Shown: positions 4,782 to 49,795, counted from the first letter of the stretch. The stretch is 64,000 bases of DNA from a virus (IMGVR_UViG_3300037510_000012:21267-85266); one strand, 5' to 3'. Notes: generated by a model not told the origin, from the letters alone. A program made the numbers and translations.

Positions 4782-4973
4782 ATGGCTGAGGAGCCTACAC
4801 AAATTGACCTTGCTCCATTTCTCGCGGCGGTAGTTGAAGAGGCTGGTGGGGAAGTAAGGATTCCATATGATGTATTCAGGAATCAGGTTGGCAGTAAGGC
4901 AATTGCGATTGATATTGAAGATGATGGTGCAACCATCGTTCTAAGTCTAGTTGAGGAGATTCCAAGTGAGTGA
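4782..4973 (+). CDS. hypothetical small acidic protein
   Basis: ORF track; RBS TAAGGAGG 8 nt upstream; follows a hairpin-AAGCTT element. Confidence 0.55.
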   Translation: MAEEPTQIDLAPFLAAVVEEAGGEVRIPYDVFRNQVGSKAIAIDIEDDGATIVLSLVEEIPSE

Positions 4974-5322
4974 TTACAGCATGTCAATGAATCAGTATCA
5001 GGACTATACCCTTGATACTGCAATGTATCCTGGTGCGGGTGAGGGTGACCTTCAGGCCATCCTTTATACTACGCTAGGTCTGGCCGGTGAGGCTGGAGAA
5101 ATTCCTAACAAGGTAAAGAAGATTCTCCGGGATGATAATGGTGTCCTGAGTGAAGAGAAGCGTAAGGCAATTCTTGACGAGATTGGCGACGTGCTGTGGT
5201 ACACTGCTCGACTGGCTCATGAATTGGGAGCGAGGCTTGGTGACATTGCTGAGGCAAATGTTGACAAGTTGGAGGACCGAGCAAATCGCGGGGTTATCCA
5301 GGGTAGTGGAGACTACCGCTAA
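4966..5322 (+). CDS. mazG: MazG-like nucleoside triphosphate pyrophosphohydrolase
   Basis: EAGE....IGDVLWYTARLA MazG core; GTG start 7 nt after GAGGAG (track ORF begins at TTG 4951). Confidence 0.7.
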   Translation: MSDYSMSMNQYQDYTLDTAMYPGAGEGDLQAILYTTLGLAGEAGEIPNKVKKILRDDNGVLSEEKRKAILDEIGDVLWYTARLAHELGARLGDIAEANVDKLEDRANRGVIQGSGDYR

Positions 5323-5339
5323 CCTGGTATAATCATAGT

Positions 5340-5540
5340 ATGATGAACGGCTACTTCCTCAGGGGAATCACAGAAGATAACATTTTGGTGTTCCGAAGTG
5401 ATGACCCTGAGGAGCTTCTGCGAATTATTAGGCGACTTTGCGCTAGCCGCGACAAACAAATAAGAGCGCTCGCACAGCAACTAGAAATCGACTGGAATAG
5501 TCGAGAAAATACAAGAAAAGGTAATAATCGTAACAGATGA
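5340..5540 (+). CDS. hypothetical protein
   Basis: ORF track only. Confidence 0.4.
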   Translation: MMNGYFLRGITEDNILVFRSDDPEELLRIIRRLCASRDKQIRALAQQLEIDWNSRENTRKGNNRNR

Positions 5541-6559
5541 GTTTTGAAGATTTCATGTCGAAATTGGACCCAAAGACGGCTAAGCGTCTTCAGGTTGCGC
5601 AGGAGATTGAGACTAAGCAGCTCCCTCTTGCGAGCATTGGTCTAACACACGCTCTGAATGGAGGAATCGGAACCGGCCGGGTTTCTACCTTCTACGGTAA
5701 TCAGAGTAGTGGTAAGTCCCTAGTTCTCATGCAGACAATTGGTTTGCTACAGAAGTTGGGTTATGTTTGCGTATATGCAGATGCAGAGGGTACCTACACA
5801 AAGGAATTCGGTAAGCGTCTCGGTATCAACAATGAAGAGTTGATTTATGTACGCAAGAAGTCTACTGGTGCAATGACTGACAGCATCATTCCTTATATTG
5901 AGGCTGGTGTTGACTTCATGGTCATTGACAGTATCAGTGACTTGCTTCCTGAGGTTTTCGTTGGAACTGATGGAAATGTAAAGGAGTTTGCTGACATGAA
6001 GCAGATTGGTGCTCACGCCAAGTCTATTACTGCCATGCTCAATGCAATTCACTATGCCAACGAAAAGACAGCGGTTGCAATGGTGAGCCAGACAACCACA
6101 AAGATTGAGGCAGCATACGTGCAGCAGGTTCCACACGGTGGGCAGAAGGTTCTATTTGGGTCTTCTCAAATTGTGAAGTTGACCTCAAGCAATACAGATG
6201 CAAAGCAGATTAAGGGTATGGTTCAGCAGGGTGATAGGCTAGTGGAAAAGCCTATTGGTCGTAGAGTTGACCTAATTGTTGAAAAGAACAAGTTGGGTCC
6301 TCAGCATCGTCGTTGTGCATACGATATGTATTACGATGGTCCCCAGGTCGGTGTAGACCTTGCTGGTGAGGTATTTGACCTTGCCGTTGATTTTGGTATC
6401 GTAAACAAGTCAGGCGCATGGTTCAATTACAATGACAAGACTGTTTATACACAGGGTCGTCCAGCCTTCCTTGAGGAGATTAAGCGAGATGATGAATTGT
6501 ACTCACAGTTGAAGAAGGAGGTCAACATCGCCCTGAATGGTGGTGTGATTGACGAGTGA
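5537..6559 (+). CDS. RecA/UvsX-like recombinase (P-loop ATPase)
   Basis: Walker A GNQSSGKS; YADAEGTYTKEFGKRLGI matches RecA FIDAEHALDPIYARKLGV; Walker B MVIDSIS. Confidence 0.8.
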   Translation: MSFEDFMSKLDPKTAKRLQVAQEIETKQLPLASIGLTHALNGGIGTGRVSTFYGNQSSGKSLVLMQTIGLLQKLGYVCVYADAEGTYTKEFGKRLGINNEELIYVRKKSTGAMTDSIIPYIEAGVDFMVIDSISDLLPEVFVGTDGNVKEFADMKQIGAHAKSITAMLNAIHYANEKTAVAMVSQTTTKIEAAYVQQVPHGGQKVLFGSSQIVKLTSSNTDAKQIKGMVQQGDRLVEKPIGRRVDLIVEKNKLGPQHRRCAYDMYYDGPQVGVDLAGEVFDLAVDFGIVNKSGAWFNYNDKTVYTQGRPAFLEEIKRDDELYSQLKKEVNIALNGGVIDE

Positions 6560-19662: not shown

Positions 19663-19733
19663 ATCTCAGAGCGTAGGTTGTGTCGGTCGGTCTCCAAAAC
19701 CGACTCGTGAGAGTTCGAATCTCTCCTGGGGTG
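19663..19733 (+). tRNA. tRNA-Trp(CCA)
   Basis: Anticodon arm TCGGT-CTCCAAA-ACCGA; T-arm GAGAG-TTCGAAT-CTCTC; acceptor ATCTCAG/CTGGGGT with G-U pairs. Confidence 0.55.
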
Positions 19734-19734
19734 C

Positions 19735-19764
19735 TTGACTTCCAAGTCTTGGAGGTGCTAAGAT
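19735..19764 (+). promoter_or_regulatory. promoter TTGACT-N18-TAAGAT
   Basis: Sequence match. Confidence 0.45.
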
Positions 19765-19856
19765 GGTATATAGATTGAAGGCGCTGTTCTTCAAGTTCCG
19801 CCCGGTGGTTGACAAGCTACTGAGCAGATGGTACGTTAGAAGAACAAAGTAAGCAA

Positions 19857-19985
19857 CAAGCTTTCGGGTCGGCTGGATGAGGGTTATCTAACCTAAACAA
19901 TTATACAGTCAATGGTAATTCCTGGTGGATTCCAGGGAGTGTGGTGACTATAACACCTCTCCCTCGCCAATAACATATCCGAAAA
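19857..19985 (+). ncRNA. structured leader/sRNA unit U1 (5' AAGCTT-TCGGGTCGG ... AACATATCCG 3') immediately upstream of tRNA-Ile
   Basis: 5' GGATGAGGGTTATC pairs with 3' AATAACATATCC (5 bp + 5 bp); internal hairpins TCCTGG/CCAGGG and GGGAG/CTCCC. Confidence 0.35.
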
Positions 19986-19988
19986 CAA

Positions 19989-20063
19989 TGGGGTATAGCT
20001 CGGTCTGGTTAGAGCATTCCGCTGATAACGGAACGGTCGTCGGTTCAAATCCGACTGCCCCAA
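19989..20063 (+). tRNA. tRNA-Ile(GAT)
   Basis: D GCTC..GAGC; anticodon arm TTCCG-CTGATAA-CGGAA; T GTCGG-TTCAAAT-CCGAC. Confidence 0.7.
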
Positions 20064-20462
20064 CTTTATGGGTCGGATTCAGTAGTTTAACTTAAATCCA
20101 AACCGCGTGTCCTAGGTTCGAATCCTAGTCCCGGCTTTCTTGTCGGGGTAGCTCAGTGGCAGAGCAGTGGTCCTTAAAAAACACTATTGAAACAACATAT
20201 CCATTAAATAACTTAAAATTTGCGGGTCGGAAGAATTCAGTTATCTTTCTACCACAAACAATCAGAAAACCGCAGGTTCGACTCCTCGGAGGGATGAATG
20301 TGAGAGGTCACAGCTAGGCATGAAGCTTAGTGAATCCAGCTTCTGAATTCTATAATATATCCGCAAAAGCTTTGGGTCGGATGAAGACGTTTATCGTAAG
20401 TTCAACTCTTATCATCCCCCCTCATGGGGATGGGGCGTGGTGCCCACTCGTTTTCTACAACA

Positions 20463-20559
20463 TACCCATTATGGAAGGTCAATCCGATTGGCGACGGAAC
20501 TTGTCTTGAAAACAAGCGAGGTGTGAAAGCCCTTAGGAGTTCGACTCTCCTACCTTCCG
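20463..20559 (+). tRNA. tRNA-Ser(TGA), class II with a long variable arm
   Basis: Acceptor GGAAGGT/ACCTTCC 7/7; anticodon arm CTTGT-CTTGAAA-ACAAG; T AGGAG-TTCGACT-CTCCT. Confidence 0.6.
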
Positions 20560-20579
20560 CTTTACCCTAAGGAGTAAAA

Positions 20580-20765
20580 TTGACTGAGACAGAGAATGTC
20601 GGTCCTACATCGTATCAGCTAGCAATCATCCTTGCACTTCAGAGCAAGCATGTATACGCTAACACAGTTAGTTACGATGAGATTGCACGACGACGTAAGG
20701 CAAGCAAGCGAGCGCGGCTACAGCGCAGAACAAACAGAAGGCTTGACACGACACGTCGCTCGTGA
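20580..20765 (+). CDS. hypothetical small basic protein
   Basis: TTG start 5 nt after AAGGAG; lies between tRNA-Ser and tRNA-Asp. Confidence 0.35.
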   Translation: MTETENVGPTSYQLAIILALQSKHVYANTVSYDEIARRRKASKRARLQRRTNRRLDTTRRS

Positions 20766-20844
20766 TAAGGTTTTATTAGATGGTCGGCAAGCAGGGAAGA
20801 GAAGGCTACAGGAGCTTGAGCAACAACACCTTCCACCATCACAT

Positions 20845-20917
20845 GCGTCGTTAGTTCAGCGGTCAGAGCACTGCCCTGTCAAGGCAGAAGTCGCGGGTTC
20901 GAATCCCGTACGGCGCG
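20845..20917 (+). tRNA. tRNA-Asp(GTC)
   Basis: Acceptor GCGTCGT/ACGGCGC; anticodon arm CTGCC-CTGTCAA-GGCAG; T GCGGG-TTCGAAT-CCCGT. Confidence 0.85.
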
Positions 20918-20947
20918 CTTTCGTAAAGGAATAAAGAGGGAGTTCTA

Positions 20948-21148
20948 ATGGCACGAGTTAAGAAGTTTGACCTTGTTGAGCTTGACAAGGAAGGCTGGTT
21001 CTCTGCTAAGGTAAGTGGAAAGTTCCGGGGTTTGGTCGAGAAGACTGGACGAAGCAACTACACTCTTCACCTTGGCAAGAACGATGTAACTAACTTCAAG
21101 ACTAAGAAGGCTCTTGAGACTTGGCTCACCGAGAAGTGGGCATCATAA
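20948..21148 (+). CDS. hypothetical protein
   Basis: ORF track; RBS GGAATAAAGAGGGAG. Confidence 0.5.
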   Translation: MARVKKFDLVELDKEGWFSAKVSGKFRGLVEKTGRSNYTLHLGKNDVTNFKTKKALETWLTEKWAS

Positions 21149-21239
21149 TTAAATATTGATAAACGTTCGGGTCGGATGTAATTGCTTATCTATTATGGGA
21201 ATAAAACGCGATTACTCTAACATATCCGTTCTAAACTTC

Positions 21240-21395
21240 TAGCCCTAACAATTTCGGGTCGGAGTTTCTTGGTTACCTTACTATGCATGAGAAGTTGTCG
21301 GTTCGAATCCGGCCGGGTCCATTCATGGGCCTGTAGTTTAATTGGCAAAACTTACACCGAGGAACGTTTCATATCCGTCTTAATTGTTAGGGCTA
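21240..21395 (+). ncRNA. candidate Y RNA-like tRNA-mimic: a 14-bp terminal helix enclosing a tRNA-like T-arm module
   Basis: TAGCCCTAACAATT (21240-53) is the perfect reverse complement of AATTGTTAGGGCTA (21382-95). Inside are GGGTCGGAG, a T-arm GTCGG-TTCGAAT-CCGGC and tRNA-5'-half-like GGGCCTGTAGTTTAATTGGCAAAACT. It lies 650 nt upstream of the Ro60 gene. Confidence 0.4.
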
Positions 21396-21421
21396 AGCTT
21401 TTGTCTAGAAAAGGAGAGACA

Positions 21422-21607
21422 ATGCCTCGCTACGAGAAGAAGGTCAAGATTAACGCAAACCTCGTAAAGAAGTATGACGAGGAATACTACCGAGTCCTTG
21501 ACGATGTGCAGATGCGTGAGCTAAAGTTCAAGGGACATGTCCGGCCGGAAGGTAAGGTTGTTGAAACCAGGACACACATCATCAGCTATTACATTGAGGT
21601 GGATTGA
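21422..21607 (+). CDS. hypothetical protein
   Basis: ATG after AAAGGAGAG; the track ORF 21269 extends upstream into a structured-RNA region. Confidence 0.5.
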   Translation: MPRYEKKVKINANLVKKYDEEYYRVLDDVQMRELKFKGHVRPEGKVVETRTHIISYYIEVD

Positions 21608-21608
21608 T

Positions 21609-21974
21609 ATGCTTAACTGGCTTGGCCAGGACGTAAAGGTAGGCTCTGTGGTTTTTCGCGGGGCTCGGCAAGGTAACTCTTCCAGTCACAAGATTGGTGT
21701 GGTAGAGTCTCTTAACGAGAAGACGCGAAAGGCACGGGTGGCCTGGAAGTACGAGCTTGGTGTAGAGTGGATTCGTCCAGTCCAAGGACAGTCTTACTAC
21801 CTTGAGTGCCCACACAAGTTGAGTGAACGTGCAAAGGGGAGTCCTGACGTTGGTCCGCTTGTAGTTGTGCCCCATGGTCTGCTAACCTCAGCAGAGAACA
21901 TGATTAAGGGTGCAGAGATGGCTAAGGCACAGAATGTACCATCACATGAGGTTGACAACTTCATTCAGATTTGA
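21609..21974 (+). CDS. hypothetical protein
   Basis: Internal ATG after GAGGTGG; overlaps the upstream stop. Confidence 0.5.
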   Translation: MLNWLGQDVKVGSVVFRGARQGNSSSHKIGVVESLNEKTRKARVAWKYELGVEWIRPVQGQSYYLECPHKLSERAKGSPDVGPLVVVPHGLLTSAENMIKGAEMAKAQNVPSHEVDNFIQI

Positions 21975-22047
21975 TAATTTCATAGCCGGTAATACCGGCA
22001 AGCTTCCATAAACAATATGCCCAAAATGGGCCGAAAGGATTAGAAAA

Positions 22048-23664
22048 ATGTCTAATGCACTTGGTAAGTTTGCTGCTTCTCAGAAGCAGGAGCGCGTTGC
22101 TACGCCTCAGACAAAGCGTACCCCTGGTCGTACGGATGAGGTCAAGAACAACGCGGGCGGGTTTGTGTTCAAGGTAGACGACAAGTCTCGTCTTGAGCGC
22201 TTCCTGGTGTTGGGTACTGACAAGGGTACCTATTACGTTGGTGAGCAGAAGTTGACGGCTCAGAACATTTCCTTCCTGAAGGAGATGGTCCGTAAGGATG
22301 AGCGTCTGGTCGTGGACACTGCTGTTGACGTCTCTGTAAACGCTCGTGCGCTTAAGAATTCTCCTGCGCTGTTCGCTATGGCTCTGGTCATGACGGAGGG
22401 CAAGGACAAGGCTTACGCTCGTGAGGCCGTACAGAAGGTTGCTCGTACGTCTACCCACCTTTTCGAGTACGCACAGTACATCGATGACCTGGGTGGTTGG
22501 GGTCGAGCAAAGCGTCGTTCTGTCGCTGAGTGGTACGAGAACAAGTCTATCGATGCGCTTGCGTATCAGGCTGTGAAGTACCGTCAGAGGAACGGTTGGA
22601 CGCACCGTGACCTTTTCCGTCTTGCTCACCCTCAGGGTGTAGACCAGGGTGTTGGTAACTTCATCCTTGGCAAGGACGTTGAGGCTGAGGTGGAAATTCT
22701 TAAGGGCTTCGCTGCAATGCAGTCTGCGACTTCGGTCAAGGATGTTATTCGCACGCTGGAGACTTTCAAGAACCTTCCTTGGGAGACCATCCCTACTCAG
22801 TTCCTCAAGGATGTGAAGGTCTGGAAGACTCTGTTCTACAACGGTCAGCTTCGTGGCCAGGCTCTCATTCGCAACATTACTCGACTCGCTCGAATTGGTG
22901 CGTTTGATGACATGGTTTTCGCAACTGACTACGCGAACGCAATTGCTAACCAGGAAATGATTCAGAAGACTCGTCTTCACCCAATCAACTTCCTGAATGC
23001 GGTTGTTGTTCACGAGAGTGGACAGATTGACCGTAACGGTTACAGCATGTGGAGTGCCGGACGTAAGAAGGATTGGAAGTCTAACGGAAAGATTGTGGAT
23101 GCTCTCAATGAGGGATTCCACATGGCATTCAAGACTGTCGAGCCTTCTGGCAAGAGGACTCTGGTTGCGACTGACGTGTCTGGCTCAATGAGTCAGGCTG
23201 CCATCGGACTTGACCTCTCTTGTGCTCAGGTTTCTGCGGCTGTTGCTATGACGGTTGCGCGTTCCGAGCCTTACAGTGACATTGTTGGCTTCTCTAGCAG
23301 CATTGTTGACTTGGGCATTACCGCTAAGAGTTCTTTTGCCGACGCAATGCGTAAGGTGAGTAACAGGAACTTTGGTGGTACGGATGCGGCTGCTGCAATT
23401 AAGTACGCTAACCAGAAGGGAATTCAGGTTGACACCTTCGTAGTTATCACTGATAACGAGACGTGGGGCGGAAGCCAGAAGCCTTTCCAGGCACTTAAGC
23501 AGTACCGTCAGAAGACCGGAATTGATGCGCGTCTTGCGGTTCTCGGTGTGGCGTCTACGGACTTCACCATCGCTGACCCTACGGACCGTGGAATGATGGA
23601 CTTCGTTGGTTTCGATGCAAATGCGCCTAAGGCCCTCGCGGACTTCAGCGCTGGTCGTATCTGA
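22048..23664 (+). CDS. rsr: Ro60/Rsr ortholog (TROVE domain plus C-terminal vWA with a MIDAS motif)
   Basis: 538 aa; C-terminal vWA with DVSGSM MIDAS motif at ~370; N-terminal HEAT-like TROVE region; bacterial and phage Rsr genes usually sit beside Y RNA genes. Confidence 0.7.
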   Translation: MSNALGKFAASQKQERVATPQTKRTPGRTDEVKNNAGGFVFKVDDKSRLERFLVLGTDKGTYYVGEQKLTAQNISFLKEMVRKDERLVVDTAVDVSVNARALKNSPALFAMALVMTEGKDKAYAREAVQKVARTSTHLFEYAQYIDDLGGWGRAKRRSVAEWYENKSIDALAYQAVKYRQRNGWTHRDLFRLAHPQGVDQGVGNFILGKDVEAEVEILKGFAAMQSATSVKDVIRTLETFKNLPWETIPTQFLKDVKVWKTLFYNGQLRGQALIRNITRLARIGAFDDMVFATDYANAIANQEMIQKTRLHPINFLNAVVVHESGQIDRNGYSMWSAGRKKDWKSNGKIVDALNEGFHMAFKTVEPSGKRTLVATDVSGSMSQAAIGLDLSCAQVSAAVAMTVARSEPYSDIVGFSSSIVDLGITAKSSFADAMRKVSNRNFGGTDAAAAIKYANQKGIQVDTFVVITDNETWGGSQKPFQALKQYRQKTGIDARLAVLGVASTDFTIADPTDRGMMDFVGFDANAPKALADFSAGRI

Positions 23665-25026: not shown

Positions 25027-25104
25027 GCCCCAGTATCGCCACTGGCTTCTAACCAGTCGTTAACAGCGTAATGGAGTATGCAGGTTCGAATCCTGTCTGG
25101 GGTA
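25027..25104 (+). tRNA. tRNA, atypical (possible TCT anticodon; D-arm unclear)
   Basis: Acceptor GCCCCAG/CTGGGGT 7/7; T GCAGG-TTCGAAT-CCTGT; internal hairpin ACTGG-CTTCTAA-CCAGT. Confidence 0.45.
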
Positions 25105-25441: not shown

Positions 25442-25490
25442 GAATAATATGGATGGTAGGATACTCCTAAGAAGGTTTAGGAGGATGAAA

Positions 25491-26051
25491 ATGCCTAAGA
25501 GAAAGTTTTTCTATGATACCGAGTTTCACGAAGATGGTAAAACTATTGATTTGATTTCAATTGCTATGGTTCGTGGAGACGGTAAGGAATATTATGCTGT
25601 ATCATCTGATGCGGATTACAAGCGGGTTTTTGAGAACAGTTGGTTGATGAATCATGTTATGAATACAATCGACCATGTTGTTGTTGAAGACCATCACGGT
25701 GGCGGATATACAATTATCCCAAAGGGTCCTTTCGTAAGAACCAGAGAACAAATCCGTGATGAAATCCTTGAATTCGTAATGGAAAGTCAGGATGAATTTA
25801 ACGACCCTCATGGTGAGGCAAAGGCTGAGTTGTGGGCATGGTATGCTGACTATGACCACGTAGCACTTTGTCAACTGTTTGGTAAGATGATTGACCTTCC
25901 AACAGGTTTCCCTATGTTTACTAGAGATTTGAGGCAGCATTGGGAGTATAAGGGATATCCTGAGCTTCCAAGACAAGACGATGGTGAACACAACGCACTT
26001 GACGATGCACGTCACAACCTGGTAATGTATAACTACATGGAAGGTCTGTGA
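25491..26051 (+). CDS. DEDDh 3'-5' exonuclease (RNase T/oligoribonuclease-like)
   Basis: Exo I FYDTEF; Exo III H..ALDDARHN; start 6 nt after TAGGAGG. Confidence 0.6.
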   Translation: MPKRKFFYDTEFHEDGKTIDLISIAMVRGDGKEYYAVSSDADYKRVFENSWLMNHVMNTIDHVVVEDHHGGGYTIIPKGPFVRTREQIRDEILEFVMESQDEFNDPHGEAKAELWAWYADYDHVALCQLFGKMIDLPTGFPMFTRDLRQHWEYKGYPELPRQDDGEHNALDDARHNLVMYNYMEGL

Positions 26052-26964: not shown

Positions 26965-27768
26965 ATGTTCGGTCGTCGTAAGGCTGCTTTCGTTCCCGAT
27001 ACCACCAAGCGTGTTCTTAAGACTGTCAAGGTTGTTAAGCGAGACCCTTCTACGGCTGCTGCGCCTGTTGACCTGATTAAGAAGGTTGGTGTTTCTTTCG
27101 AAAAGAAGGTTGAGTCTGCTGTTAATCTGAACAAGAATGTCAGTGGCCCTTCTCGCGGTGTTGTCTGGAATGTTATCGGTCTGCTTGATGAGTCGTACTC
27201 TATGGCTCCGTTCTTCAGTGATGGCACTGTTCAGGAGATTGTTGACCGTGTGCTTGCTTGGTCTGCCTCGGTTGATGCTGATGGCCTGGTGCCTTTCGGC
27301 GGATTTGCTGACAGCCACGTTTGGCACGGTGACGTTGACCTGACTAACGTTAATAACGTCGTTGCTACAAACGGCTGGTCGCCTTGGGGTGGTACCAACC
27401 TTGCTGACTCTCTTCAGGCTATCCTTGACATGGTTCGGGACATGGGAGATGCTTGGCAGGAGAACCCCATCCTTCTGTTCATTGTGACAGACGGTATGCC
27501 GTTCAATCGGGACCTTGTAAAGCAGCTTATTCAGGAACTTTCTCAGTACCCTGTCTTTATCAAGATTCTGCGGGTTGGCAATGACCCTGGTGCTAAGGCT
27601 TTCGTTGAGGACCTTGACAACATGGTTGGTGGTCGTCTGGTGGATAATGTTGAGGCTCCGGATGATGGTCTCCGTAAGGGAATGTCTGACGACAAGTTCA
27701 ATGCAGCGATGATTCACGACATGGACAAGTATGTCAACGATGCAACTGCGGTTGGCCTGCTTAGTTGA
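26965..27768 (+). CDS. vWA-domain protein (MIDAS DESYS)
   Basis: VIGLLDESYSM MIDAS motif; RBS ACAAGGAGAA. Confidence 0.7.
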   Translation: MFGRRKAAFVPDTTKRVLKTVKVVKRDPSTAAAPVDLIKKVGVSFEKKVESAVNLNKNVSGPSRGVVWNVIGLLDESYSMAPFFSDGTVQEIVDRVLAWSASVDADGLVPFGGFADSHVWHGDVDLTNVNNVVATNGWSPWGGTNLADSLQAILDMVRDMGDAWQENPILLFIVTDGMPFNRDLVKQLIQELSQYPVFIKILRVGNDPGAKAFVEDLDNMVGGRLVDNVEAPDDGLRKGMSDDKFNAAMIHDMDKYVNDATAVGLLS

Positions 27769-28746: not shown

Positions 28747-28832
28747 GGATGTGTAACACGTAATTGGTAGCGTCGCGGCCTGTAAAGCCGTTGTCCGAAA
28801 GGGCTCTGGGGGTTCAAGTCCCTCCGCATCCA
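28747..28832 (+). tRNA. tRNA-Tyr(GTA), class II
   Basis: Anticodon arm CGGC-CTGTAAA-GCCG; long variable arm; T GGGGG-TTCAAGT-CCCTC. Confidence 0.8.
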
Positions 28833-28834
28833 CT

Positions 28835-28906
28835 GTGTCGGTAGCTTAATGGTAGAGCGTTGCGTTGTGGTCGCAATGGTTGCGGGTTCAAATCCCGTCC
28901 GACACC
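28835..28906 (+). tRNA. tRNA-His(GTG)
   Basis: Acceptor GTGTCGG/CCGACAC 7/7; anticodon arm TTGCG-TTGTGGT-CGCAA. Confidence 0.85.
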
Positions 28907-30500: not shown

Positions 30501-30779
30501 GGGGTAGCTTGGTTTCGACTTTGCTGGACGGGATATAAACGCAACCCTTCTTGGTCAAAGAAGTAAAACGGGCCAACCAAATAAATGCAAACTCTATGAA
30601 TGCATCTGCTTTCGCTCTAGCAGCGTAAAAGCCGGGTTTGTCGGGAACCTAGGAACAGAATCCCGACTAGTACAAAATGTGTAGATAATGTGTAAGACCC
30701 TTCAGTGTGATTGACAATGGTTGTAGAACGGTTATATGCTAGATAGTAAAGGACGCGGGTTCGACTCCCGCCTACTCCA
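30501..30779 (+). ncRNA. ssrA: tmRNA (ssrA) with tag reading frame ANSMNASAFALAA*
   Basis: 5' GGGGTAGCTTGGTTTCGAC...GGGATATAAACGCAACCC matches E. coli ssrA GGGGCTGATTCTGGATTCGACGGGATTTGCGAAACCC. 3' GGACGCGGGTTCGACTCCCGCCTACTCCA matches GGACGCGGGTTCAACTCCCGCCAGCTCCA. Acceptor has the G3-U70 Ala identity pair; tag frame runs GCA...GCT CTA GCA GCG TAA. Confidence 0.75.
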
Positions 30780-31561
30780 CACAGAAAGATATGGTAATGA
30801 GAGTAACAAATCTCTACATCTATGGTACTGTCGAGTACCTGCGTAGGCTTGAGGAAGACTACGTGTTCATGGGTAGACAAGTGAGACTTGAAGATGATAG
30901 GCTCATCGTGTTCGCGCTTCCCAGGAAGAAGCGAAAGAAGTCTCCCAGTAAGCAGCGCCGTAGGCGTTGACAGACAGGGTTGGAACCTGTTAAGGTATAA
31001 GTAGAAGGTCAGGCAGTCGGACAAGGCTTAGGCGAGTGAGAGTAGTTCAAGCGGTGGTAACTTAAATGCCCACTTAATGATGCTCAACAAATCGGTGGGA
31101 TGCGAGTGGACTAGTCCTGACCTTTTAAGCTTCAATCTGTGGATAACGAAAGGGGTCCGGCGTTCTGTGAACTGGCAGTCGGGTAGCCTGGCATGATACA
31201 ATAAACCTCTAGCGGGGTTAGTCACCCAAGAGTAAAGTTCATTGAGGGTGAGCAGATTGAAAACTAGGTTGCGAGAGGGACAACGGGTGTGCTAAGGTTA
31301 GGTACCGAATCAAGGCACCAAGGTAGATAAGGGGAGAACAGCAAAGGGTCTCCGTGTATCGCAACCAAGCTTTGCAGCAAGCAGGCCAAACGCTATAGAC
31401 AGGGATACAAGGTTCTGAAAAGATAACGCCCATTTGGCAGGGTAGAAAGTTATCACCTGATGCTATCCACGCTGCAACTATGGAGATGACCGGAAACTTC
31501 TCCATAAGCTTCCTTCGTACAAAGCTGTAGGAATAAAAACAAACACGAAGGGTATTAAAAT

Positions 31562-33809: not shown

Positions 33810-33892
33810 GCACATATGGCGGAATGGCAGACGCGCTAGCTTGAGGTGCTAGTCTCAGAAATGGGGTGGGAGTTCGACTCTCCCTATGTGCA
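33810..33892 (+). tRNA. tRNA-Leu(GAG), class II
   Basis: Acceptor GCACATA/TATGTGC 7/7; anticodon arm CTAGC-TTGAGGT-GCTAG; T GGGAG-TTCGACT-CTCCC. Confidence 0.8.
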
Positions 33893-33893
33893 C

Positions 33894-34048
33894 GTCCTTG
33901 TAGCTTAAAAGGAAGAGCGCCGTAAAAACGGAGACGGGTCATAATAGGAAAGGTTGCGGATGCACCGAATGGCTCTAGTAGGGTCTGTAGGGAAGCGCGT
34001 TTTCCAAGCCTATTTACAGTGGTGTGAGTTCGAATCTCACCAGGGACA
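33894..34048 (+). tRNA. tRNA-like gene with an ~80-nt insertion between the D-arm and T-arm (intron-containing, split or degenerate)
   Basis: Acceptor GTCCTTG/CAGGGAC pairs 7/7 across 155 nt; D-arm GCTT..GAGC; T GTGAG-TTCGAAT-CTCAC; no canonical anticodon arm found. Confidence 0.4.
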
Positions 34049-34219
34049 CATGGCTTATCTAAGAGTAGGTGCACAGGTTACAATTTGTGAGAACTTCAAT
34101 AAGAAGGGTCGAAATTGGAAGAACGTAACTGGCTATATTCTTATGATGACTCGCAAGGAAGTGACAGTGCAAACAGAGTATGGTCAAATTATCGTACCTA
34201 GGAAAAAGGTGGTGGCTAA

Positions 34220-38308: not shown

Positions 38309-38382
38309 GGCCGCGTAGCCCAATGGCAGGAGGCGACTCTCTCAAAAAGAGTACAGTGTGGGTTCGAATCCCACCGTGGCTA
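38309..38382 (+). tRNA. tRNA with anticodon CAA on a class-I (short variable arm) body
   Basis: Acceptor GGCCGCG/CGTGGCT; anticodon arm ACTCT-CTCAAAA-AGAGT; T GTGGG-TTCGAAT-CCCAC; CAA reads the Leu codon UUG but there is no long variable arm. Confidence 0.55.
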
Positions 38383-38408
38383 CTTCCCGAAACAAAAAGG
38401 AGAAAATA

Positions 38409-38621
38409 ATGCAGTTTACCCAGGTTGATGAAGACGCTTACAATGTTCTCGTGAATCTTAACACGATTTCTCGAATCGGTGAAGCGTTCGATGCTCTTGT
38501 TGCTTCTGGCAATGCTGACGAGCGGGATGAGGCTCTTCGTAACTCCTTCAATGGTGCTTATGCGAAGTTGTCTGAGCCTGAGACTGATGTGGTTGACGAG
38601 TCCGATTCCGGACTTGAGTGA
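38409..38621 (+). CDS. hypothetical acidic protein
   Basis: RBS AAAAGGAGAAAATAATG. Confidence 0.5.
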   Translation: MQFTQVDEDAYNVLVNLNTISRIGEAFDALVASGNADERDEALRNSFNGAYAKLSEPETDVVDESDSGLE

Positions 38622-43685: not shown

Positions 43686-44462
43686 ATGTCCAAGATTATG
43701 ATTCTGGGCGACGTTCACGGTGAGACAAAGTGGCTGGTGAACATGATTAACAAGGCCAGTCGAATGGGCGTCAAGAAGATTCTCCAGGTTGGAGATTTCG
43801 GAATCTGGACTCATGAGGCTGAGGGACACCGGTTCCTTGACCGCGCAAATGAGGAGCTTCGTAAGCATGGCATTAAGCTCTATTTCGTTGGCGGCAATCA
43901 TGAGAACTGGGACCACCTGAATTGGCACGAGAAGAATGGTGCTAAGGACTGGAATGGTCACACATTTATTCGGTCTCACATTCTTTACACTGGTCGGGTG
44001 AATCGCTGGACCTGGGGTGAGAAGGGTGAGGAGAAGGTCTTTCAGGCTGTTGGTGGTGCCTTTTCAATTGACCGGCGTCGGCGGGTTGTTGGAAAGACTC
44101 TCTGGCTTGATGAGGAGATTCCTGACCGGGTTGTTTATGGTCTGGAGAAGGCTGGTCGGAAGTGTGATTACCTTTTCACGCATGATGGTCCTAGCTGTCT
44201 TCCATTCGCAAATCTGAAGCCTGATATCGACTCTGATATGCACCGGCAGAAGATGGACCGAATTGGGCGGGCTACTCGGCCTAATCTTTGGTTCCACGGT
44301 CACTATCACAAGTGGATGGAGTACAGCTTTATGCACCAGGAGGGTTATTCCTTCGTGTATGGGCTTGACCGGGACTATCAGTTCTACTCTTACGCCATTC
44401 TTGATACTGCATCTGGTGACGTTGAGACTGCAACTGGTAAGATTATCGAGCACGGAAACTGA
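43686..44462 (+). CDS. calcineurin-like metallophosphoesterase (lambda-PPase/Pnkp-phosphatase type)
   Basis: GDVHG; GDFG; GGNHE motifs. Confidence 0.75.
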   Translation: MSKIMILGDVHGETKWLVNMINKASRMGVKKILQVGDFGIWTHEAEGHRFLDRANEELRKHGIKLYFVGGNHENWDHLNWHEKNGAKDWNGHTFIRSHILYTGRVNRWTWGEKGEEKVFQAVGGAFSIDRRRRVVGKTLWLDEEIPDRVVYGLEKAGRKCDYLFTHDGPSCLPFANLKPDIDSDMHRQKMDRIGRATRPNLWFHGHYHKWMEYSFMHQEGYSFVYGLDRDYQFYSYAILDTASGDVETATGKIIEHGN

Positions 44463-46412: not shown

Positions 46413-46484
46413 CCCTGGTTAGCTAATAGGTAAAGCAGCCGATTTATAGTCGGATATATATGGGTTCGAATCCCGTACCGGGGA
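46413..46484 (+). tRNA. tRNA-Ile(TAT)?
   Basis: Acceptor CCCTGGT/ACCGGGG; anticodon arm CCGA-TTTATAG-TCGG; T ATGGG-TTCGAAT-CCCGT. Confidence 0.55.
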
Positions 46485-46516
46485 CTTTTGACATTTAAGT
46501 ATACGGAAGTTATACT

Positions 46517-46951
46517 TTGATTATGTCCAGACTAGTGAACCTAGCTAAGGCTGTGTCAGAAAAGCCTACAGAGGCAATCGAGTACATCATTTCGATGGCA
46601 GTGTTCTTTGTAGGAATCTGGTTCCTAAGTCCTTTCTATAAGCCGTCTACGTCAGTTCAGTCACAGATTTGGGAAAGTACCCACATTCCTCAATATACTG
46701 GTGCTGTTCAGGCATTTCTAGCCGCGCTTCTATTCATTGCACTGGTCAGAAAGAATTGGGTGAGGAGGCAAGCGGTCCGTCGGCAGACAACGTTTGCCAT
46801 TTTTGTTCTTTACCTGTTTTATGGATTCTCTTCTACAATCATCCTTGGGATGGGGAGGGTTTCTTGGGTATCCACATTCGCAATTGCGCTAATCTCAGGT
46901 GTGGTGAACCTAAGGTTGAAGTGGGAGGAGGGTAATCATGCCGGAAATTAG
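46517..46951 (+). CDS. membrane protein (4 TM helices)
   Basis: Hydrophobic helices. Confidence 0.55.
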   Translation: MIMSRLVNLAKAVSEKPTEAIEYIISMAVFFVGIWFLSPFYKPSTSVQSQIWESTHIPQYTGAVQAFLAALLFIALVRKNWVRRQAVRRQTTFAIFVLYLFYGFSSTIILGMGRVSWVSTFAIALISGVVNLRLKWEEGNHAGN

Positions 46952-48193: not shown

Positions 48194-48215
48194 AAACTAT
48201 GGGCTTCGGCCCTAT

Positions 48216-49605: not shown

Positions 49606-49712
49606 TATCGGGTCGATTGGATAGGGTTATCTAACAATCAATTGGTGATGAGCCTTCGGGCAACCCTGCGGCGGGTATAGCCGCATCTCCCTTCCTCAAC
49701 ATATCCGATGTA
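49606..49712 (+). ncRNA. structured leader/sRNA unit U7, homologous to U1, immediately upstream of tRNA-Gly
   Basis: Shares TCGGGTCG-TTGGATAGGGTTATCTAAC at the 5' end and AACATATCCGA at the 3' end with the unit at 19857. Confidence 0.35.
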
Positions 49713-49715
49713 TTT

Positions 49716-49788
49716 GCGGGTGTAACTCAATTGGCAGAGTGCTAGCCTTCCAAGCTAGATGTTGCCGGTTCGACCCCGGTCACCCGCT
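49716..49788 (+). tRNA. tRNA-Gly(TCC)
   Basis: Acceptor GCGGGTG/CACCCGC 7/7; anticodon arm CTAGC-CTTCCAA-GCTAG; T GCCGG-TTCGACC-CCGGT. Confidence 0.85.
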
Positions 49789-49795
49789 CGAAACA

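Follow-up and report, generated by a model that had tools for sequence, protein, structure and literature searches.

Does a phage that carries a gene for the protein Ro60 also carry Y RNAs of its own and, if so, how many and of which kinds? This question is raised by a stretch of viral DNA of 64,000 nucleotides (nt; IMGVR_UViG_3300037510_000012:21267-85266), hereafter called the window, in which a gene for a Ro60 (Rsr) ortholog lies downstream of several elements that contain arms of transfer RNAs (tRNAs) and are not canonical tRNA genes. Ro60 is a major human autoantigen, and its role in RNA surveillance is best understood in bacteria. Phage Ro60 genes with adjacent Y RNAs have been known since 2014 (PMC4201824) and were shown biochemically in 2025 (PMC12135203), and the RNAs of the window are further members of this known kind, with some new features and in a system that is more elaborate than usual.

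We consider it likely, with a probability of about 85%, that the phage encodes a Ro60 ribonucleoprotein system composed of Ro60 and at least seven Y RNAs; a maturation linked to tRNAs and, with about even odds, a feedback through the leader of the Ro60 messenger RNA (mRNA) would complete it. Within this proposal, comparison of sequences demonstrates the presence of the Ro60 gene, the existence of seven conserved, structured and strand-specific elements with a module of the Ro-binding type, and the linkage of such elements with Ro60 across the whole family.

The Ro60 gene and the phage that carries it

The gene at 22048..23664, on the + strand, encodes a protein of 538 amino acids, in which the original prediction had seen a TROVE-like HEAT-repeat region followed by a von Willebrand factor A (vWA) domain with the Ro60-type motif DVSGSM. 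Profile searches confirmed both parts. TROVE (PF05731) matches with an E-value of 3.2e-37 and 129 bits (cutoff, 23 bits), so the similarity is not explained by the vWA domain alone, and the Ro60-specific vWA profile (PF25045) matches residues 370-533 (5.4e-56). The translation contains LVATDVSGSMS, which includes DVSGSM, a motif of the DxSxS type for metal-ion-dependent adhesion sites. The best structural relative is the Rsr protein of Deinococcus (2NVO; 6.6e-100, residues 19-537), and the alignments with the human (9NEN; 1.1e-87) and Xenopus (1YVP; 3.8e-85) proteins are also nearly end-to-end. The product is a full-length Ro60 ortholog, and its homology to solved structures predicts the ring fold of TROVE/HEAT-repeat proteins.

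The gene was called correctly, but it was already known from relatives, where its homolog is labelled “Ro-like RNA binding protein”, and a genome note from 2026 lists a Ro60-like gene as common to this phage cluster. Ro60 homologs are present in 358 phage records, including 212 from Mycobacterium, 115 from Streptomyces, 11 from Gordonia and 10 from Microbacterium phages. The closest of these relatives are the Streptomyces phages Francob, Gilson and their kin, which are about 90% identical to the window across 4 kb; they are siphoviruses of 128-131 kb that belong to the Stanwilliamsviridae. The source of the window is a Streptomyces siphovirus of the Gilson/Francob group. The window contains 32 tRNA genes and a transfer-messenger RNA (tmRNA), all on the + strand (ARAGORN and Rfam).

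Seven elements with a common module

Seven Y-RNA-like elements (E1 to E7) were identified, all of them on the + strand. E1-E6 are found between 19862 and 21395, 0.65-2.2 kb upstream of Ro60 and on its strand, and E7 lies 26 kb downstream of the gene. The original prediction had proposed three candidate Y RNAs upstream of Ro60, corresponding to E2, E3 and E6. Their Y-RNA-like character holds, and every sequence feature quoted for 20070-21395 (T-arms, stretches similar to tRNA halves and a terminal helix) is present; moreover, neither ARAGORN nor Rfam (at gathering score) calls any of the three a tRNA, in line with what had been claimed. Their number, however, has to be raised to seven, as the elements at 19862-19984, 20371-20470, 21166-21231 and 49607-49709, together with the motif common to all of them, had gone unnoticed.

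E1-E6 start with (C/U)GGGUCGG and end with (C/U)AUA(U/C)CC(G/A). The window contains 14 occurrences of GGGTCGG, where 4.6 would be expected, with six of the + strand copies concentrated within 1.5 kb. In the window copies, the 5′ motif reads GUCGGCUG, GUCGGAUU, GUCGGAAG, GUCGGAUG (twice), GUCGGAGU or GUCGAUUG. A structural descriptor, composed of the 5′ motif, a perfect terminal helix of 5 bp and a second helix no shorter than 6 bp, recovers E1-E6, while random windows of the same composition produce 0.85 matches per 64 kb when both strands are counted. Thus, the clustering of the motif and of descriptor matches is far above chance. Two further candidates, a descriptor match at 44152-44381 and a - strand GGGCCGAAGCCC at 48210, were judged to be chance occurrences, as 0.85 are expected per window.

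In the minimum-free-energy folds, the ends of the elements pair as (N)GGGU with AYCC(N), and this helix is followed by an internal loop and a second helix. The common module starts with a terminal helix (Y)GGGU/AYCC(R), whose length is 5-8 bp; beyond it come a bulged C with a G.U pair, then an internal loop that is asymmetric (5′ GRNN, 3′ AACAU) and a second helix of 7-10 bp. The sequence of this second helix is wholly different between copies and its pairing is always kept (UCAGUAGU/ACUAUUGA, AGAAUUCAG/CUGAAUUCU and GUAAUUGC/GCGAUUAC, for instance). At the 5′ edge of the variable domain that follows, five of the seven elements have exactly UUAUC, and the sequence is UUAAC in E2 and UUACC in E6. 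The architecture of metazoan Y RNAs (terminal helix, bulged C, upper helix and UUAUC-type sequence at the 5′ side of the loop) is, hence, present in 7/7 elements.

By contrast with this shared module, the variable domains differ considerably. Two elements are Y RNAs of the YrlA type, with a tRNA mimic composed of a T arm, a hairpin and a D arm. The first, E2 (20067..20205), contains CCTAGGTTCGAATCCTAG and GGGGTAGCTCAGTGGCAGAGC and is recognised by R2 (one of the two covariance models, R1 and R2, described below), below threshold by the YrlA model of Rfam, and by compensatory changes. The second, E6 (21240..21395; R2, Rfam YrlA below threshold, and alignment A1), has its core at 21253-21379, inside an extra basal helix of 14 bp formed by the inverted repeat TAGCCCTAACAATT (21240-21253) / AATTGTTAGGGCTA (21382-21395), and it carries the T-arm GTCGG-TTCGAAT-CCGGC and the D-arm-like GTAGTTTAATTGGCAAAAC. 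In E4 (20371..20470; R1, R2 and fold), the tRNA-like domain is degenerate and consists of a T-like arm, UAAGUUCAACUCUUA, and two hairpins. Other folds are found in E1 (19862..19984; weak R1 match, fold and orthologs), which begins with UUUCGGGUCGG...GGGUUAUCU, ends with AACAUAUCCGAAA and has several hairpins that are not tRNA-like; in E3 (20220..20366; R2 and compensatory changes), where the terminal helix UUGCGGGU/AUCCGCAA is combined with a T-arm-like hairpin (GCAGGTTCGACTCC) and a three-way junction; and in E7 (49607..49709; R1, R2 and compensatory changes against elements of the Faust type). Finally, E5 (21166..21231; R1 over its full length, and R2) is a minimal Y RNA in which the candidate Ro-binding module is directly capped by a loop. 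Therefore, the tRNA-like effector module that had been attributed to the candidates is real in E2 and E6, and in degenerate form in E4, but it is not a property of E1, E3, E5 or E7.

In phages Faust and L023 (L numbers designate the loci that were compared), tRNA-Ile is preceded by an element of which E7 is a paralog; the position of E7 upstream of tRNA-Gly is kept in about nine related phages. In the five records of relatives that we examined, only tRNAs, and no other non-coding RNA, are annotated at the sites of the Y-RNA-like elements. In Streptomyces phage Sham (L005, 2907-2968), a “tRNA-Ser(cga)” of 62 nt is annotated that corresponds to the tRNA-like core of a Y RNA of the E6 type, and this kind of mis-annotation may be common in actinophage records.

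Covariance models and linkage with Ro60

The Ro60 loci used for comparison came from IMG/VR (38 loci, with 36-97% protein identity), from GenBank phages and from bacterial genomes, the latter being represented by seven loci obtained by a scan of genome contigs, mostly metagenome-assembled genomes (MAGs). Two covariance models were built with seeds from other phage clades only: R1, from six minimal elements (L026, L037, L038 and L011), and R2, from three tRNA-like elements (L022, L038 and L020). As several rows of the MAFFT alignments (nine minimal and five YrlA-like sequences) were structurally misaligned, the seeds were cut to these six and three sequences, and the structures were written by hand. 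The E-values are rough, since the calibration was shortened.

Together, R1 and R2 recover 7/7 elements of the window, and E7 was revealed by R1. R1 matches E5 over its full length (43.2 bits, E=7.6e-8), E7 (28.1 bits, E=2.4e-4), E4 (25.0 bits, E=0.0012) and E1 (19.5 bits, E=0.023), and R2 matches E2 over its full length (76.1 bits, E=1.1e-14), E6 (55.9 bits, E=3.4e-10), E3 on the candidate Ro-binding module (37.2 bits, E=4.9e-6), E5 (34.1 bits, E=2.4e-5), E4 (30.0 bits, E=2e-4) and E7 (25.0 bits, E=0.0026). E1 has no match with R2, and E2, E3 and E6 have none with R1. Because their large inserts cost too much in this model, these three are not found in the window by R1 with the filters off either, a setting in which E1 is lost, and R2 is needed for them. 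Among the remaining matches of R2, those at 28774-28884, 33849-33928, 30712-30833, 38327-38453 and 46424-46523 are weak, overlap tRNAs or the tmRNA and were discarded as cross-matches with T and D arms; a match at 33988-34143 (17.5 bits, E=0.12) was rejected too, as the sequence has no 5′ module.

The association with Ro60 extends far beyond the window. Over loci L001-L043 and the window, the descriptor produces 70 matches on the + strand versus 1 on the - strand. In most lineages, even where Ro60 is only 36-60% identical, a relaxed motif, GGNCGR-N6-14-TTAHC, is found on the Ro60 strand no further than about 1 kb upstream of the gene, and it almost never appears on the opposite strand of Ro60 loci. 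R1 has 41 matches in 30 other loci, all of them on the Ro60 strand. Three elements of the Ro60 locus of mycobacteriophage Bxz1 are matched by R1/R2, as are elements of Gordonia phage Sixama and the bacterial Ro60 loci of Chthonomonas, Fimbriimonadia and Poribacteria. Non-coding RNAs similar to Y RNAs have been reported in phages, including mycobacteriophages (Chen 2014, cited in PMC12135203). That models trained only on Ro60-neighbouring elements of distant phages detect all seven elements, and that the same modelling reaches Bxz1, supports the earlier assignment of the candidates to the Y RNAs.

Structural covariation among orthologs

In alignment A1 of E6, which contains 10 orthologs, 11/40 consensus pairs have double compensatory changes and 98.5% of the cells are paired, compared with 36-59% in controls where the partners were slid; shuffles reached the observed value in 0/500 cases for four of five measures and in 1/500 for the fifth. 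Compensatory changes also affect 13/31 consensus pairs of E2 (8 orthologs), 8/36 pairs of E3 (6 orthologs), 4/13 pairs of E5 (7 orthologs) and 5/25 pairs of E7, when this element is compared with those of the Faust type. E1 and E4 say little in this respect, the diversity of their orthologs being too low or the alignment too poor.

The 14-bp helix of E6 had been put forward as a stem of the Ro-binding type. Its covariation between phages (Gilson has AGCCCCUAAUGAU/AUCAUUAGGGGCU; Faust, AACCCCUGAAGAUU/AAUCUUCAGGGGUU) makes it a real basal helix, but one that is restricted to E6 and external to the conserved module. Ro60 is likely to bind, instead, the conserved helix with its bulged C and the second helix.

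Arrangement with tRNA genes

Several elements are closely packed against tRNA genes. E1 ends 4 nt before tRNA-Ile(gat) (19989..20064, + strand; ARAGORN and Rfam), and the discriminator base of this tRNA is separated from the start of E2 by 3 nt. E2 and E3 are 14 nt apart, E3 and E4 are 4 nt apart, and E4 ends 4 nt before tRNA-Ser(tga) (20473..20560, + strand; ARAGORN). Likewise, E7 ends 6 nt before tRNA-Gly(tcc) (49716..49789, + strand; ARAGORN). Thus, four of the seven elements (E1, E2, E4 and E7) lie 3-6 nt from a tRNA end, and no tRNA adjoins E5 or E6. As so many elements are located at this distance, a release of the Y RNAs by tRNA-processing enzymes is suggested, with the three tRNAs as proposed processing anchors. 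In this arrangement, the Y RNAs would be transcribed together with the tRNAs, and RNase P and the enzymes of tRNA 3′ processing would define their ends.

A comparable organisation is seen in Gordonia phage Sixama (L052), where at least five Y-like elements are found downstream of Ro60 (4895-5646) and a sixth is upstream (2167-2231); three of the downstream elements alternate with tRNA-Arg, tRNA-Gln, tRNA-Ile and tRNA-Met, with spacings of 2-8 nt.

An additional observation concerns AAGCTT, which has 46 sites in the window, versus about 20 expected and a maximum of 32 in 200 random sequences. The sites, which include those at 19858, 20367, 21395, 22000 and 23691, often fall just before a Y-like element or immediately behind a stem-loop (as GGGCUAAGCUUUUG behind E6, as CCGGCAAGCUUCC ahead of the Ro60 leader and as GGGGGCAAGCUUGUU behind Ro60), a habit of placement that is also found in relatives. 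The sequence may act as a signal for punctuation, termination or processing.

The leader of the Ro60 mRNA

Directly before the Ro60 start, the leader reads AAACAAUAU-GCCCA-AAA-UGGGC-C-GAAAGGA (22010..22039, + strand), which we interpret as a circularly permuted candidate Ro-binding module and a candidate operator, given the conservation of its design in phage loci. The 3′-strand motif comes first, followed by a terminal helix closed by a loop and by the 5′-strand GGGCCGAA (GGGC-C-GAA), and the module runs into the Shine-Dalgarno sequence AAGGA, 8 nt before the AUG. In 30/43 phage loci, which are related to each other, a hairpin with (C)CG(A/G)A immediately behind it is found within positions -50 to -5 of the Ro60 start, against a background of 0.03 per 45-nt window. 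The helix varies with the lineage (GCCCU/AGGGC, GCCCC/GGGGC, GCUCAU/AUGAGC, GCUCAUG/CAUGAGC and CACGA/UCGUG, as well as GCUCGU/ACGAGC in Microbacterium phage A3Wally), while its flanks persist, with ..AAC(C)UUG or ..AU before the helix and CGAA plus the ribosome-binding site after it. The design is kept in phages of Streptomyces and Microbacterium, in many uncultured phage lineages and in one bacterial locus (L047). The leader was assessed by this enrichment count instead of a covariance model, because the lineages differ in helix and loop length and MAFFT cannot align them structurally; R1 gives it only 11.9 bits (E=1.4).

The chances that the leader is a translational feedback operator of Ro60 are, in our view, about even. 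Operators in which an mRNA mimics the RNA ligand of the protein that it encodes are well known, for instance in ribosomal-protein leaders, in the T4 RegA and gp32 systems and in the MS2 coat protein operator. As in these autoregulatory operators, the copy of the presumed binding site in the Ro60 leader overlaps the ribosome-binding site. Unlike them, the copy is circularly permuted, with the helix closed on the side that is open in the Y RNAs.

The bacterial instance, L047, comes from a MAG of Fimbriimonadia. About 60 to 37 nt upstream of its Ro60 start the sequence is CACUUGCCCAGAUUGGGCCGAAUC, so that a Y RNA, at its 3′ end, is continuous with the 5′ motif GGGCCGAA ahead of the ribosome-binding site. 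This locus may also hint at an origin of the permuted module from the junction of two tandem Y RNAs.

In the uncultured phages L027, L028, L025 and L030, the permuted module takes the form ..CCAACCUUG-GCUCAUG-GGUUU-CAUGAGC-CGAAUAAGGAG, and in the 700 nt that precede Ro60 no separate Y RNA is detected by R1/R2; in L027, L028 and L025, the sequence upstream of the leader looks protein-coding. The Y RNAs of these four phages, if any, are elsewhere or of a different form.

A proposed mechanism and its alternatives

These observations can be assembled into a mechanism, part of which is built by analogy with known systems. The Y RNAs would be transcribed with the tRNAs and would have their ends defined by the tRNA-processing machinery, as the spacing suggests. 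By analogy with Deinococcus, Salmonella and the Thermus phage phiLo, the ring of the phage Ro60 would bind the conserved module of each Y RNA, and the variable domains would tether or gate Ro60 towards different partners, the likeliest of which would be a 3′-5′ exoribonuclease such as the host PNPase. During infection, the resulting particle may degrade or repair RNAs that are structured or damaged. Finally, as the conservation of the leader suggests, free Ro60 would bind the permuted module of its own mRNA and occlude the ribosome-binding site, a repression that would match the synthesis of Ro60 to the pool of Y RNAs.

Several observations weigh against this proposal. In six of the seven window elements, CGG (within GUCGG) takes the place of the CGA that is part of GNCGAA in bacterial Y RNAs and, because of this difference, the geometry of binding may not be the same; GNCGAAN0-1G does fit the orthologs of sister phages, with their GUCGAAAG or GUCGAAUG. 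In the Rfam searches that the original prediction had suggested, the YrlA model matches E2 (29.0 bits over the full model, 20079-20193, E=0.0014) and the core of E6 (28.5 bits, 21292-21352), but both scores are far under the gathering threshold of 69 bits for YrlA (RF02553), and Y_RNA and stem-bulge RNA (sbRNA) models (RF00019 and RF01656, with gathering scores of 38 bits) have no match at E<=10 in 19700-22100. At gathering score, no Y RNA family is found in the window or in 15 other phage Ro60 loci, where only tRNAs and tmRNA are detected. Among the elements, E1 is the weakest of the seven, its R1 score falling from 19.5 bits with default filters to 8.9 bits with the filters off, and E4 has only four orthologs, all close, with little covariation. 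As for the leader, the loci behind the enrichment count are not independent, its covariation is weak in an unbiased MAFFT alignment (two pairs with double changes, a value reached by 101/500 shuffles), and neither Bxz1 nor Sixama has a clear copy of the motif. Consensus scans show no enrichment of promoter-like (9 versus 6.5 expected) or terminator-like sites (7 versus 5.9), and we consequently make no claim on transcription units. Additionally, the exonuclease partner is proposed purely by analogy.

Three alternatives must be weighed. The one that survives best, which we nevertheless consider unlikely, accepts that the elements are genuine Y-like RNAs and holds that their main job is independent of Ro60-guided decay: they would be, for instance, decoys for host nucleases or modifying enzymes that target tRNAs, with Ro60 as a stabilising chaperone. 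E2 and E6 do mimic the elbow of a tRNA, Ro60 is known to stabilise Y RNAs, and the phage invests heavily in its own tRNAs and tmRNA, an investment often read as a counter to tRNA depletion. However, only two or three of the seven elements are tRNA-like, and the known bacterial and phage systems point to the tethering of exoribonucleases.

It is still less probable that the elements are spacers of the tRNA operons that act in cis, as entry sites for nucleases, terminators or attenuators, and are discarded after processing without ever being partners of Ro60 in trans. The tight packing against tRNAs and the AAGCTT that recurs beside several elements speak for such spacers, but E5 and E6 adjoin no tRNA, and the elements have none of the U-tracts that are typical of terminators. 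Furthermore, the module is linked to Ro60 across distant lineages, with or without tRNAs, and looks like the Ro-binding helix found in Y RNAs of metazoans, nematodes and bacteria.

Finally, we give very little credit to the idea that the elements are decayed tRNA genes or fragments left by rearrangements of the tRNA island, functionless in themselves and unconnected with Ro60, for although they sit inside a tRNA cluster, T-arm-like hairpins are found in E2, E3, E4 and E6 (with D-arm-like hairpins also in E2 and E6) and one relative annotates the core of E6 as a tRNA, they share 5′ and 3′ motifs and two outer helices that have no counterpart in tRNAs, E1, E5 and E7 have no tRNA-like part, the T arm precedes the D arm as in YrlA and unlike in tRNAs, the helices covary, and the module is also found upstream of Ro60 in phages and bacteria where no tRNAs are nearby (L026 and Bxz1, for instance).

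We therefore continue to favour a Ro60 ribonucleoprotein system encoded by the phage.

Other features of the window

Some neighbouring features deserve mention. The gene at 25449-26051 (+ strand), 1.8 kb downstream of Ro60, is an open reading frame of 200 amino acids with an Rv2179c-like 3′-5′ exoribonuclease domain (Pfam, 3.2e-11), whose counterpart in Gilson is labelled “Rnase H”. As bacterial Ro60/Y RNA particles work with 3′-5′ exoribonucleases, its product could, by analogy, be a phage-encoded partner of the particle. The second vWA protein that had been noticed downstream is also present (26965-27768, + strand); it has a vWA-TerF-like domain (Pfam, 2.4e-24), is not a relative of Ro60 and has no evident link to Y RNAs. 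Two tRNA calls are marginal: a tRNA-Trp(cca) at 19663-19734, with only 29.1 bits, right at the Rfam threshold, and a 78-nt Rfam tRNA match at 25027-25104 (34.2 bits), directly after tRNA-Arg, that is not called by ARAGORN.

Novelty and significance

In a literature search of incomplete coverage, we found no paper linking Streptomyces phages to Y RNAs, no account of Ro60 autoregulation, and no description of the copy number and diversity seen here, the integration into a tRNA array, the metazoan-like signature or the leader mimic. That three of these undescribed features hold jointly, namely, a leader operator that competes with the pool of Y RNAs, a battery of Y RNAs built into a tRNA array and a shared ancestry of bacterial, phage and animal Y RNAs, is a tentative proposal, to which we give somewhat less than even odds.

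If the reading of the tRNA array is true, actinophages would have as many as seven Y RNAs that differ in their effector domains. Such a combination of one Ro60 with seven Y RNAs would address the question of which roles Y RNAs have beyond the tethering of PNPase and, provided that the effector domains are distinct, would be a compact natural system for asking how the diversity of Y RNAs redirects a single Ro60 ring. As the 358 records attest, Ro60-bearing phages of Streptomyces and Mycobacterium are abundant in teaching collections. In turn, the leader motif offers a simple hypothesis for the coupling of Ro60 levels to Y RNA levels, and the shared helix and UUAUC signature bear on the homology of animal and prokaryotic Y RNAs.

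Comparison with known Y RNAs and Ro60 systems

The elements of the window resemble the YrlA RNAs (RF02553) in that they adjoin Ro60 on the same strand and have a 5′ motif comparable to GNCGAA, to which the orthologs of sister phages conform. GNCGAA was described by Chen 2014 (PMC4201824) as GNCGAAN0-1G and related to the GGUCCGA of vertebrates, which is contacted by Ro60; the tRNA-like domain of bacterial Y RNAs was described in the same work. As in YrlA, the T arm of E2 and E6 precedes the D arm, with a hairpin between them, and the similarity to mycobacteriophage Y RNAs is reflected in the matches of phage-element models to the Bxz1 locus. The elements differ from YrlA in their scores, far below the gathering threshold, and in the CGG that replaces CGA in six of the seven. 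Additionally, the window contains seven paralogs, the majority of which lack a tRNA-like domain; they are interleaved with tRNA genes, and both strands of the Ro-binding helix and UUAUC are conserved, which brings them closer to the metazoan RNAs.

Among phage systems, the nearest is that of the Thermus phage phiLo, whose Ro60 binds two upstream Y-like RNAs (Yrl1 and Yrl2) and forms complexes with the host PNPase (NAR 2025, PMC12135203). In both phages, Ro60 is phage-encoded and the Y-like RNAs lie just upstream; the RNAs of phiLo have, like the window elements, a stem-bulge-stem structure, in their case with a CGAA motif. In phiLo, binding and the ternary complex with PNPase are experimental, whereas our proposal is drawn from sequence. 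Unlike the window, with its seven RNAs, phiLo has two, and tRNAs are hardly mentioned in the phiLo paper (2 word matches). For the proposed action, the model is the Rsr-Y RNA-PNPase particle (RYPER) of Deinococcus radiodurans, in which a Y RNA tethers Ro60 to a 3′-5′ exoribonuclease; the structure nearest to the phage Ro60, 2NVO, is the Rsr of Deinococcus, and the partner in the phage is proposed by likeness to RYPER.

Finally, the elements share with metazoan Y RNAs (RF00019) and nematode sbRNAs (RF01656) a terminal helix with a bulged C, a 5′ strand similar to GGUC(C)GA and, beyond a second helix, UUAUC at the loop's 5′ end, a sequence noted as a hallmark of nematode sbRNAs (PMC4450293). Unlike those RNAs, the window copies have no matches to the two models, their 3′ strand is ACAUAUCC rather than CACUUGAC, they lack an oligo-U tail, and their expression would be of the bacterial type. 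Relatives of the window elements in L026 reach 43 bits with YrlA, and with the metazoan Y_RNA and nematode sbRNA models they come close to the gathering scores (31.7 and 33.2 bits, respectively, versus 38); the L026 sequence GACUGGGCCGAAGGUCGUGGGUUAC...CUCCCACGGCCAUCACUUGCUCAGUC aligns with the Y_RNA consensus GGCuGGUCCgAagguaGUGGGUUAu...UCCCACugCUacACUuGACUaGCC. Because both strands of the metazoan Ro-binding helix and UUAUC are kept in the phage family, a shared ancestry of bacterial, phage and animal Y RNAs can be argued and, for the same reason, the view stated in a review, that bacterial Y RNAs are not homologous to those of vertebrates, appears weakened.

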